Assembly: GCA_035686585.1 (NCBI GenBank) | Contig: DASRZG010000048.1 | Coordinates: forward strand, 1 to 36,410 | DNA: 36,410 bases | Source of the DNA: Phycisphaerae bacterium | GTDB taxonomy: Bacteria; Planctomycetota; Phycisphaerae; SM23-33 | Direction: 5' to 3' | Shown: in pieces, positions 25,908-28,744 of the stretch | How the letters are laid out: every line of letters begins with the position of its first letter | How positions within the stretch are numbered: the first letter of the stretch is position 1 | Notes under the pieces: generated by a model | Databases searched by the model: none | What the model saw: only the letters and a program-made list of their open reading frames with translations | What the model was told of the DNA's origin: nothing | Position numbers and translations under genes: made by a program

Positions 25908-27341
25908 TCAGCGCAGCGTCAGCGTCGCCACCGCCACCGCGGCGAACATCAGTCCCAGCAGCCAGAACCGCACCACCACCTTCGACTCGGCCCATCCGAG
26001 CAGGTGGAAGTGATGGTGGATCGGCGAGCAGCGGAAGATCCTCTGCCCGCCGGTCATCTTGAAGCAGCCCACCTGGAGGATCACGCTGACCGCCTCCATC
26101 ACGAAGATGCCCCCGGCGATCAGCAGCATCATCTCCTGGCGGGTGACCACGGCCACGTACCCGATCAGCCCCCCCAGCGGCAGCGACCCGGTGTCGCCCA
26201 TGAACACCTGCGCCGGCAGGCAGTTGAACCACAGGAACCCCAGGCACGCCCCGATCATGGCCGCGCACAGCACGGTCAGCTCGGCCGAGGAGGGAACGAA
26301 CGGCAGGTGGAACTGGCACGCCCACTGCGCCACGCCCGTTACCCACGTCAGCAGAAGGAACACCGCCGCCACGATCAGCATGCACCCCCCCGCCAGCCCG
26401 TCCATGCCGTCGGTGAGGTTCACCGCGTTGGACGAGCCGACCATCACCAGCACCGTCACGATCACGAACGCCGCCACCGGCAGCGCGAACGGGCCCGCGT
26501 CGATCGGCAGGAAGAAGTACTGCATCGCGCTGCCCTGCCCGCGGGCGAGCATCTCCTTGAGGTTCGCCCCGATCGGCCAGTCCGCGTCCGGCCAGAAGCA
26601 ACTGTGCTTGCCGTGATGGTGGATGAAGAACGACAGCAGCACCGCCAGGGCGATCTGGAAGAGGACCTTCTGGTAGCTCCTGAGCCCGTCTCGCGTGGGC
26701 TTGGCGTCGGCGCCGGCGGCACGCGCCAGCCGGGCGGCACGCAGCTTCAGCCAGTCGTCCACCGCGCCCAGCCCGGCCAGCCAGATCACCACCATGAAGG
26801 CCATGCGGACGTAGAAGTTGACCATGTCGGCGAACAGGTACGTGGCCACCAGGATCGCCAGGACGATCAGGATCCCGCCCATGGTGGGCGTGGCGGACTT
26901 GTGTCGGGTCAGCTCGTTCAGCTCGGCATGGTCGAACTCGGGGCGGTCTCCCAGCTTCATCCGGACCAGCCAGCGGATCGTCCGCGGGCTCAGCATCGCC
27001 ACCACCAGGAAGCTCGTCACGGCGGCGCACACCATCCGCAGCGTCAGCTTCTGCCCCCCGAACAGGGGCCAGATCGACCACCGCACCAGCAGCACGGCCC
27101 CCAGGGCGCCCAGGGCCCAGGCGGCGGCGGTGGCGGGTTTTCTCCAACGGACCGGCCAGGGGGTCGTCCGCGGGCTCAGCAGCAGCCCCATCAGGATGCT
27201 CGTCACCGCAGCGCACACGCTCGGCGGCAGCTTCTGCCCCCCGAACAGGGGCCAGATCGACCACCGCACCAGCAGCACGGCCGCCAGGGCGCCCAGGGCC
27301 CAGGCGGCGGCGGTGGCGAGTTTTCTCCAACGGTTCAGCAC
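25908..27341 (-). CDS. mraY: phospho-N-acetylmuramoyl-pentapeptide transferase, with a duplicated N-terminal membrane segment
   Basis: ATPTMGGILIV, NAVNLTDGMDGLAGG, VFMGDTGSLPLGGL and PIHHHF are MraY signatures. I place the start at GTG 27341, which overlaps the murF stop (GTGCTGA). The track ORF extends to 27941, but that stretch lies inside murF and I reject it. Confidence 0.85.
   Translation of the reverse strand: MLNRWRKLATAAAWALGALAAVLLVRWSIWPLFGGQKLPPSVCAAVTSILMGLLLSPRTTPWPVRWRKPATAAAWALGALGAVLLVRWSIWPLFGGQKLTLRMVCAAVTSFLVVAMLSPRTIRWLVRMKLGDRPEFDHAELNELTRHKSATPTMGGILIVLAILVATYLFADMVNFYVRMAFMVVIWLAGLGAVDDWLKLRAARLARAAGADAKPTRDGLRSYQKVLFQIALAVLLSFFIHHHGKHSCFWPDADWPIGANLKEMLARGQGSAMQYFFLPIDAGPFALPVAAFVIVTVLVMVGSSNAVNLTDGMDGLAGGCMLIVAAVFLLLTWVTGVAQWACQFHLPFVPSSAELTVLCAAMIGACLGFLWFNCLPAQVFMGDTGSLPLGGLIGYVAVVTRQEMMLLIAGGIFVMEAVSVILQVGCFKMTGGQRIFRCSPIHHHFHLLGWAESKVVVRFWLLGLMFAAVAVATLTLR
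26979..27333. repeat. tandem direct duplication (2 copies, period 183-186 nt) inside the mraY 5' coding region
   Basis: The copies are 26979-27150 and 27165-27333. The 106-nt cores (27045-27150 and 27228-27333) match at 104 of 106 positions by hand alignment. The remaining ~65 nt of each copy is much more diverged and carries a 3-nt indel. Confidence 0.85.
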
Positions 27342-28744
27342 GTCCGCTCCTCGACGGCGGCGCCGTCGAACGCCGCTCGAATGGGCTCCACGAGCCGCTC
27401 CATCGCCATGCCGCGCGAGCCCTTCAGCAGGACGACGTCCCCGCCGGCCAGCAGCGCCGGCAGGGCGCCGCGGGCGGCCTCGACCGACGCGATCCGCTCC
27501 GTGCGGACCGTCCCGGCCTCGGCGGCGCCGGCGGCGAGGAGCCCGCCCAGCTCTCCCACGCCCACCACCACGTCCAGCGGGGTCCGCGCCAAGTCGCGCC
27601 CGGCCTGGAAGTGAAGCCGCTCGCTGTCCGGGCCCAGCTCCAGCATGTCGCCGGCGACGAGCACCTTCCGCCGCCCGGCGAAGGACGCCAGCGACTCGGC
27701 CGCCGCCGCCAGCGAGGCGGGGTTGGCGTTGTAGGCGTCGTTGATGATGGTGACGCTGCCGGCGTGGATCGGCTCCAGGCGCATGCCCGCGCCGGCGAAG
27801 TCGGCCAGGGCGGCGGCGGCTTCGTCGACGCCGAACCCGAACCGCTGCGCCACGGCCATCGCGGCCAGGGCGTTCAGGGCGTTGTGCCGCCCGGGCGCGG
27901 GCAGGGCCGTGCGGGTCCGCCCGTTGACCTCCAACCGGCACCCGCCGGGCGCCGGCTCATAGGCGGTCAGACGCAGGTGGGCGTCGCCGGCGGCGCCGAA
28001 GCGGATCAGGCTCACGCCGCCGTACGCCCGCAGCGCCCGGGCCAGCTCGGGGCTGTCCGCCCAGACGACCGCGGCGCCGTTGGGCACAAGAGCGCCCAGC
28101 AGCGACGCCTTCTCGATCGCCACGTGCTCCAGGTCGATCAGCTTCTCCAGGTGGGCCGGGCCCACCGAGGTGATCACCGCCACGTTCGGGCGGGCGATCC
28201 GCGCCAGCGAGGCGATCTCGCCCGGGGCGTTGGAGCCCAGCTCGCAGATGACGTAGTCGTCGTCCGGCGCCACCTCAAACAGCGTCAGCGGCACGCCGAC
28301 GGCGTTGTTGTAGCTTCCGGGGCTCGCCCGGCCCCGGAGGCGGCGCGACAGGATGTGATCGATCATCCGCTTGACCGTGGTCTTGCCGTTGGAGCCGGTC
28401 ACCGCCACCACGGTCGCGGCCATCTGGCCGCGGCAGTGGCTCGCCAGCTCGCCCAGCGCCTCGGTCGTGTCCGCCACGCCGATCACCCCCCCGGCGAACC
28501 GCTTCAGCAAGTCCTGCTCCAGCGGGCTCTTCAGGTTTACCACGGCCGCGACGCAGCCGCCGGCGGCGGCGGCCGCCAGGAAATCGTGCCCGTCGAAGGA
28601 ATCGCCCTTCAGCGCGACGAACAGGCTCCCGCCCCGGACGCGCCGGGAATCGGTGCAGACTCCCTCCACGGTCACGGTCCGGGCGGGCCAGCGCCACCGG
28701 CCCCGCACCGCCAGTCGGATCTCTTCCGGGACGAGCTTCCTCAT
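27335..28744 (-). CDS. murF: UDP-N-acetylmuramoyl-tripeptide--D-alanyl-D-alanine ligase
   Basis: The Mur ligase P-loop VAVTGSNGKTT is present. The length (469 aa) and the position between murE and mraY also fit. Confidence 0.9.
   Translation of the reverse strand: MRKLVPEEIRLAVRGRWRWPARTVTVEGVCTDSRRVRGGSLFVALKGDSFDGHDFLAAAAAGGCVAAVVNLKSPLEQDLLKRFAGGVIGVADTTEALGELASHCRGQMAATVVAVTGSNGKTTVKRMIDHILSRRLRGRASPGSYNNAVGVPLTLFEVAPDDDYVICELGSNAPGEIASLARIARPNVAVITSVGPAHLEKLIDLEHVAIEKASLLGALVPNGAAVVWADSPELARALRAYGGVSLIRFGAAGDAHLRLTAYEPAPGGCRLEVNGRTRTALPAPGRHNALNALAAMAVAQRFGFGVDEAAAALADFAGAGMRLEPIHAGSVTIINDAYNANPASLAAAAESLASFAGRRKVLVAGDMLELGPDSERLHFQAGRDLARTPLDVVVGVGELGGLLAAGAAEAGTVRTERIASVEAARGALPALLAGGDVVLLKGSRGMAMERLVEPIRAAFDGAAVEERTC

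Follow-up and report, generated by a model that had tools for sequence, protein, structure and literature searches.

A tandemly repeated segment encoding a predicted N-terminal helix pair in the mraY gene of an uncultured planctomycete

Can MraY, an essential and highly conserved antibiotic target of fixed 10-helix design, gain a further pair of membrane helices? The question is raised by contig DASRZG010000048.1 of a Phycisphaerae bacterium (assembly GCA_035686585.1), the whole 36,410-nt length of which was analyzed and is referred to here as the window. Its mraY gene opens with two adjacent units of 61 and 62 codons, each predicted to encode two hydrophobic helices. The evidence makes it likely that the 61 codons next to the start codon underwent a real in-frame duplication specific to this lineage, that the cores of the two units are still recombining, and that the spare copy of the canonical first helix is diverging.

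The duplication and its recurrence in other assemblies

The two-unit mraY allele occupies 25908–27341 on the minus strand and comprises 477 codons plus a stop, beginning with GTG. Unit 1, the upstream copy (27332–27150, minus strand, 61 codons), encodes a copy of an N-terminal transmembrane helix termed TM0 (RWRKLATAAAWALGALAAVLLVRWSIWPLFGGQKL) followed by a diverged helix, TM1′ (PPSVCAAVTSILMGLLLSPRTTPWPV). Unit 2, the downstream copy (27149–26964, minus strand, 62 codons), encodes TM0 followed by the canonical TM1 (TLRMVCAAVTSFLVVAMLSPRTIRWLV). The N-terminus of the product thus reads MLN-(RWRKLATAAAWALGALAAVLLVRWSIWPLFGGQKL-PPSVCAAVTSILMGLLLSPRTTPWPV)-(RWRKPATAAAWALGALGAVLLVRWSIWPLFGGQKL-TLRMVCAAVTSFLVVAMLSPRTIRWLV)-RMKLGDRPEFDH..., and the peptides quoted in the initial annotation of this DNA match the translation from the GTG at 27341 exactly.

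A repeat search of the window returns a direct repeat of 110 nt at 97% identity (27041–27150 versus 27224–27333) and, next to it, one of 81 nt at 81% identity (26962–27042 versus 27148–27228). The start-to-start spacings of these two blocks are 183 and 186 nt, which indicates a single 3-nt indel. Tandem Repeats Finder reports a period of 183, 2.0 copies, 90% matches and a score of 614, and the mraY repeat, far above chance level, is the sole large tandem repeat in the 36-kb window. Within the units, the first 106 nt form a core (copy 1, 27228–27333, with markers CTC and GCG; copy 2, 27045–27150, with markers CCC and GGG; both minus strand) that is identical at 104 of 106 positions, with a longest perfect run of 55 nt. 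The remaining ~78 nt carry 15 base differences and one codon. Both the core identity and the diverged remainder had been described before, and recomputation of the core gives the same value. The unit lengths of 183 and 186 nt are multiples of three, and no stop codon occurs in any observed allele.

The duplication junction lies at 27148–27152 on the minus strand (...CCGGT/CCG/TTGGAG), giving the two-unit signature CCGGTC/CGTTGGAG. A 3-nt CCG microhomology is present here, with the 5′ context GAA-CCG-TTGG at the gene start and the 3′ context GGT-CCG-GATG after TM1, and the duplication may have arisen on it. The initial annotation had proposed an in-frame tandem duplication of the first MraY helix pair. 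This proposal holds, as the frame is open, orthologues carry a single unit and the junction recurs in four other assemblies. The span originally given, 26979–27333, is correct at the 27333 end, but at the other end the repeat reaches 26964.

Several other kinds of repeat or element can be set aside. No further copies of the unit were found elsewhere in the genome, which rules out a dispersed or mobile repeat. Mutagenesis by a diversity-generating retroelement is also ruled out: with canonical TM1 taken as the template, the substitutions hit A, C, G and T alike. Rfam covariance models gave no match at E ≤ 1 across 26700–27600, and a known structured RNA was accordingly rejected.

A second unit could also be produced by an assembler that loops through a repeat or joins strain variants. 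The genome is a fragmented metagenome-assembled genome (674 contigs, 78% complete) of which the window is one whole contig, and in every other assembly the contig breaks lie no more than ~200 nt from the repeat, as might be expected of such an origin. To set against this, further assemblies were retrieved through exact-product look-ups of the neighboring MurF (the anchor), FtsW, MurG and MurC, and the same-population contigs obtained in this way are 99.7–99.95% identical to the window. Four of them (k=141 or JGI) contain the junction together with the diverged, PPS-type helix. L047 (ERZ27256834) is 27 kb long, begins 5 nt ahead of the GTG and spans both units, and L043 (ERZ27256827) runs from murF through unit 1 into the junction. 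L051 (ERZ27256828) and L053 (JGI Ga0307378) each start inside the second helix of unit 1 and continue through the junction into unit 2.

These junction-bearing contigs hold single-nucleotide polymorphisms (SNPs) of their own, such as ACC>ACA at 27129, and are therefore distinct from the window contig rather than duplicates of it. Nowhere else in the genome, nor in protein databases, is there a source for the PPS-type sequence, and strain variants would show up in an assembly graph as bubbles and not as tandem joins that keep the frame. An assembly artefact is thus very unlikely. The contig breaks near the repeat are provisionally attributed to sparse 141-mers where lower-k graphs branch. L045 (ENA) and L046 (JGI) end at the identical base (...AACCGTTGGAG), and the start of L026 lies 7 nt ahead of it. 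A metagenome scan with a 36-nt core pattern yielded one contig, L026, and the ERZ27256827 contig reached via MurC starts in murG.

Orthologues show what the ancestral arrangement looks like. All 40 relatives searched have mraY, and none (0/40) has the duplication. In the two nearest species, P0002 and P0003 (JGI metagenomes), MraY is 417 aa long, 87–88% identical, and contains exactly one unit. This unit is colinear with the window from the shared GTG onward, the start overlaps murF by 7 nt here too, and the annotated proteins of both species begin at this GTG overlapping the murF stop. G014 and G015 likewise have a single unit. The second helix of the orthologues reads TLRMVCAAVTSFLVVA(M/L)LSPRTIRWLV, in P0002 identical to the downstream copy of the window and in P0003 one residue off. 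TM0 is missing from at least 17 further relatives at the family or order level, which begin V/M-I-Y/Q... about 10–15 residues before LILRM, and in a phmmer alignment residue 21 of E. coli MraY aligns with residue 98 of the query. From these orthologue and E. coli alignments, the unit is read as the canonical TM1 preceded by TM0, an additional N-terminal helix specific to the clade, and the TM0 clade is predicted to be an 11-helix MraY subfamily with its N-terminus inside.

The original contrast between a 477-aa product and a typical length of ~360 aa therefore needs adjustment. The figure of 477 stands, but the nearest orthologues have 417 rather than 360 residues because an additional N-terminal helix is already a feature of this clade. 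TM0 with a K/R-rich (lysine/arginine-rich) tail is confined to a small clade (L002, L005, P0002–P0004), as opposed to the other Phycisphaerae (L003–L020). A word-based search of 5.8 billion proteins with residues 1–140 returned three other proteins only, all single-unit, and it revealed no further lineage that carries the duplication. An exact look-up of the 477-aa protein found nothing on record, and no relevant report was found in the literature on tandem duplication or N-terminal extension of MraY. As a separate observation, murF is called as two open reading frames of 293 and 149 aa in the P0002 species (L022:1723–3007), compared with one 470-aa gene in L021; the split in L022 is probably a frameshift or an assembly error.

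Divergence of the copies and probable exchange between them

How have the two units changed since they arose? Substitution rates were estimated by the Nei–Gojobori method. Between copy 1 and copy 2, the core has a synonymous rate (dS) of 0 (0/30 sites) and a nonsynonymous rate (dN) of 0.027 (2/75). The second part has a dS of 0.144 (3/22.8) and a dN of 0.257 (12/55.2), plus the deletion of one codon. Between the window and P0002, TM0 shows a dS of 0.38 and a dN of 0.25, and TM1 a dS of 0.09 and a dN of 0. The pattern between species is thus reversed between the copies: the fast-evolving TM0 is near-identical, and the otherwise frozen TM1 is much changed in one copy. All 12 amino-acid changes and the codon deletion fall in the second helix of the upstream copy, TM1′. 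At each nonsynonymous difference copy 2 agrees with both outgroups, which identifies the protein changes as derived in copy 1. In a separate comparison, TM1 DNA is near-invariant across three species, synonymous sites included (window 26964–27044; L021:3112–3195; L025:1046–1129). The low dS of TM1 (0.09, compared with 0.38 in TM0) may reflect constraint at the codon or RNA level, or the small sample of sites.

The changes in TM1′ are concentrated in character as well as in place. At its ends they comprise T>P, L>P, R>S and deletion of M on one side and I>T, R>P and L>P on the other, so that four new prolines appear and two arginines are lost across both helix ends. The five changes in the helix core are all to hydrophobic or small residues, an outcome expected about 1 in 6 times by chance on a rough estimate and not counted here as evidence. 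At the dS of the diverged part, ~4 synonymous changes would be expected in the core and 0 are seen (P ~0.014, Poisson estimate).

A second line of evidence comes from variation in unit number, assessed at the contig level. The window, L047, L051 and L053 carry two units, L044 carries one unit joined to murF, and L043 carries a hybrid second unit. L044 runs from murF through one core (CTC, GCG) into canonical TM1, differs from the window by 1 mismatch in 4517 nt, and shares an assembly with the two-unit L047. L026 (Ga0307380) contains a join of a core (CTC and GCG) to TM1 and starts 2 nt inside the repeat, making it compatible with one unit. The signature of a one-unit allele would be the end of murF followed by a single core and then ACGCTGCGGATG.

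In L043, the CCC marker of unit 2, the GCG marker of unit 1 and a private AGG occur together in the unit that follows the junction, and the final 8 nt of this unit in the contig are of the PPS type (CCGCCGAG, with three diagnostic bases). A three-unit allele would have as its signature the junction, then a core, then CCGCCGAGC. Tentatively, L043 represents either such a three-unit allele, generated by unequal crossover, or a conversion variant. The private base in this contig is a T>A change at L043:4599 (window 27146), found in sample ERZ27256827, which gives the RWRK motif of the second unit AGG in place of TGG (Trp>Arg).

Across the contigs, the two SNPs that distinguish the cores thus occur in different combinations, and such shuffling of markers is the mark left by exchange between one core and the other. 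Support for a single copy had been named at the outset as what would refute the duplication. One-unit contigs do exist (L044, with L026 compatible), but they stand beside two-unit contigs, and the locus appears to be polymorphic rather than misassembled. Together, the synonymous contrast and the marker shuffling favor homogenization of the cores by gene conversion or unequal crossover, with a TM1′ that would have been either released from constraint or pushed to diverge. The initial annotation had left three readings of the sharp boundary between core and remainder, namely recent duplication, gene conversion of one part, and selected divergence of the other. Gene conversion or unequal recombination in the 106-nt part, combined with one-sided divergence of TM1′, is now favored.

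In such a history, ongoing gene conversion or unequal crossover would keep the TM0-coding parts 98% identical, and the downstream TM1 would stay under strong, orthologue-like constraint. The spare upstream TM1′ would lose constraint or be selected to diverge, with its hydrophobic core retained. The same recombination would yield one-unit and possibly three-unit alleles that co-occur in the population.

Selection offers a different account of the same substitutions. If the whole duplication is very young, a perfect second TM1 may have been harmful, competing for the place of TM1 in the fold, and TM1′ may have diverged rapidly and adaptively, with selection fixing the helix-end prolines and the core substitutions and the one-unit allele being the surviving ancestor. 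The dN/dS of ~1.8 in the diverged part, with all changes in the upstream copy, fits this account, as do the four prolines gained and two arginines lost at the helix ends, the hydrophobic or small character of the five core changes, and the occurrence of one-unit contigs in a near-identical background (1 mismatch in 4.5 kb). However, a dN/dS above 1 is not significant with 15 changes, and 3 synonymous changes at ~23 sites, compared with 0 at 30 in the core, are not expected for a wholly young unit. A burst of 15 substitutions is also hard to place within a background divergence of 0.02–0.3%, and the shuffling of core markers demonstrates recombination, which explains the boundary without selection. 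This adaptive account is rather unlikely.

A further proposal concerns the purpose of the variation. Unit number (1, 2 or 3) could be a recombination-driven switch maintained for altering MraY behavior, which we hold to be improbable. If it were true, the switch might affect dimerization, partner binding in an FtsZ-less divisome, or sensitivity to MraY-targeting inhibitors or phage lysis proteins, and selection would then explain why the two-unit allele persists although 106-nt direct repeats make its deletion easy. The most likely role of the putative extra hairpin is that of a tolerated, nearly neutral appendage.

Gene identity, translation start and predicted topology

Does the two-unit gene still encode MraY, and is the upstream unit translated? 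By all sequence and fold criteria, the two-unit protein is MraY. It matches Pfam PF00953 (Glycos_transf_4) at 6e-30 (104.7 bits against a cut-off of 27) and PF10555 (MraY_sig1, MraY signature 1) at 20.7 bits against a cut-off of 20.1, and phmmer aligns it with E. coli MraY 8g01 at 5e-71. The catalytic motifs DDxxK, NxxNxTDGxDG (NLTDGMDG) and PxHHH are invariant in a 38-sequence alignment, in which the invariant residues are D195, D196, K199, N305, N308, D311, D314 and H442–444. An AlphaFold2 (AF2) model of the 477-aa protein has a mean predicted local distance difference test (pLDDT) value of 84 and a predicted template-modeling score (pTM) of 0.84. Foldseek matches this model to 8TLU with an E-value of 7e-22 and to MraY structures with target-normalized TM-scores of 0.86–0.93.

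The start region (27339–27352, minus strand) consists of a GAGGAG Shine–Dalgarno-like hexamer, a 5-nt spacer and the GTG. This GTG (27341–27339) overlaps the murF stop TGA (27337–27335) within GTGCTGA, and the arrangement GAGG(A/T)GCGGACGTGCTGA (GAGG(A/T)G-N5) is also found in the two nearest species, P0002 and P0003. Ribosomes initiating at 27341 would read through unit 1. Translation from the conserved GTG through both units would then give a 477-aa MraY with two extra helices before the normal enzyme, and we infer that this product is made. The sequence and its translation agree with the original description of a GTG start overlapping the murF stop and of a product of about 477 aa. Peptides specific to the upstream unit would include the tryptic TTPWPVR and LATAAAWALGALAAVLLVR.

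It had also been stated that no in-frame start codon lies at the copy boundary. None is present there, but in-frame starts do occur inside unit 2, at 27095 (GTG), 27086 (GTG) and 27035 (ATG). Unit 1 could accordingly be a non-coding or dispensable leader, with MraY made from the ATG at 27035 (375 aa and 10 helices, as in most Phycisphaerae MraY) or from the GTG at 27095 or 27086. Most relatives lack TM0 and start ~10–15 residues before TM1, and unit 1 is modeled at low confidence, both of which would suit a leader. On the other hand, GAGGAG-N5-GTG at the murF stop is conserved in the nearest species, whose annotated proteins begin there, and no Shine–Dalgarno-like sequence is suitably placed 5′ of 27035, 27086 or 27095. 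Unit 1 is moreover open and in frame despite 15 substitutions, its sole indel being a whole codon, and a start at 27035 would strip the conserved KLTLR cap from TM1. A leader of this kind is distinctly improbable. GGAG within TGGAGAAAA was considered as an internal ribosome-binding site and rejected, as no start codon follows within the next 20 nt.

The predicted topology is consistent with two added helices. Hydropathy analysis gives four peaks in residues 1–125. On a Hessa-type scale, used as a rough guide, the 15-residue core of each peak scores on a par with the genuine TM1 and TM3. Lysine and arginine residues number 3 in the N-terminal tail and 4 in the inter-unit loop (residues 56–70), and 1 and 2 in the two short GGQKL loops, which are putatively outer; this distribution fits hairpins with the N-terminus inside. 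In the AF2 model, unit 2 forms helices at residues 67–94 and 99–127, with 10-residue block-mean pLDDT values of 86–97 over residues 71–120. Unit 1 forms helices at residues 2–33 and 40–54 at low confidence (pLDDT 46–67). Two hydrophobic helices per unit, as originally suggested, are supported by hydropathy and AF2, with the K/R-rich segments on the predicted cytoplasmic side.

Three extra helices (2–33, 40–54 and 67–94) are thus predicted before TM1, and the predicted architecture differs from the ten-helix, N-out form; the variant architecture does not remove the protein from the MraY enzyme family. Duplication of the hairpin should leave the orientation of the catalytic core unchanged in the predicted topology, since both ends of the hairpin lie on the cytoplasmic side. 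At the level of prediction, the transmembrane analysis also supports the earlier expectation that an even number of added helices preserves topology.

Some points weigh against a translated and still recombining duplication. The dS of the diverged part derives from 3 changes only and the contrast with the core is marginal (P ~0.014), and a recent duplication followed by positive selection on TM1′ may be compatible with the rates. The three-unit reading of L043 depends on the 8 terminal nt of a single contig. The joins that define the one-unit and hybrid forms lie at contig ends, where few reads or library chimeras could in principle be responsible. Independence among the ENA, JGI and Logan assemblies is limited, since they may stem from one sample or from sister samples. 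Internal initiation may occur at the ATG at 27035, and membrane insertion of the extra hairpin is predicted from a unit 1 with pLDDT values of 46–67. With these points taken into account, a genuine in-frame duplication with recombining cores and a diverging TM1′ remains the likely reading.

The surrounding genes follow the order murE-murF-mraY-ftsW-murG, with murD absent from its usual slot. The upstream murF (27335–28744, minus strand) encodes 469 aa with Pfam Mur_ligase N, M and C domains. Between the mraY stop (25908) and the ftsW start (25732), the spacer segment 25771–25814 is AT-rich and palindromic. Over 5.5 kb, L026 and the window differ by 14 SNPs and one indel; 6 of these SNPs and the indel fall in this segment, which is hypervariable between strains.

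Comparison with known systems

The locus may offer a rare view of a polytopic membrane protein caught in the act of gaining a helix pair with its topology intact. A redundant copy of a normally invariant helix appears to be drifting while the copies still exchange sequence, all within one population, and this would suggest that additional membrane segments at the N-terminus are tolerated by MraY. Little of practical weight follows unless the added hairpin is functional. The finding is a small evolutionary curiosity in an uncultured soil planctomycete (Phycisphaerae) population, not a new system.

Compared with canonical MraY (E. coli 8G01/8TLU and Aquifex aeolicus 4J72), the protein is alike in its Pfam matches, motifs, predicted fold and position after murF in the dcw cluster. 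Solved MraYs, in the paper on 4J72, reportedly have 10 helices and an N-terminus outside. The present protein differs in that the TM0 of its clade raises the predicted number of helices to 11 and the two-unit allele raises it to 13, with a length of 477 as against 360–417 aa. Single-unit MraY of the nearest species (P0002 and P0003; contigs L021 and L025) shares 87–88% identity, the 7-nt GTG/murF overlap and the TM0 plus TM1 unit, but has that unit once. Its TM0 is ~25% diverged from that of the window, whereas the two TM0 copies of the window differ at 2 of 35 residues.

Membrane proteins are known to grow by duplication of helix pairs, in which the rest of the protein retains its topology when the added helices are even in number, and one copy diverges. 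The known cases are ancient and recognized from weak internal symmetry, whereas the mraY case appears young, recombining and outside the catalytic fold. Variable intragenic tandem repeats are likewise known in bacterial genes, among them E. coli tolA (PMC3477136) and genes of Legionella (PMC2639597). The mraY repeat resembles these in being in frame, in a unit number that appears to vary within a population, and in a probable basis in recombination or slippage. It differs in that its unit is 183 nt long and encodes, within an essential enzyme, a whole predicted transmembrane hairpin instead of a soluble linker or surface repeat, and in that only 1–2 units (perhaps 3) are seen. The mraY duplication thus belongs with variable intragenic repeats and with the growth of membrane proteins by helix-pair duplication, and it represents no new enzyme or pathway.

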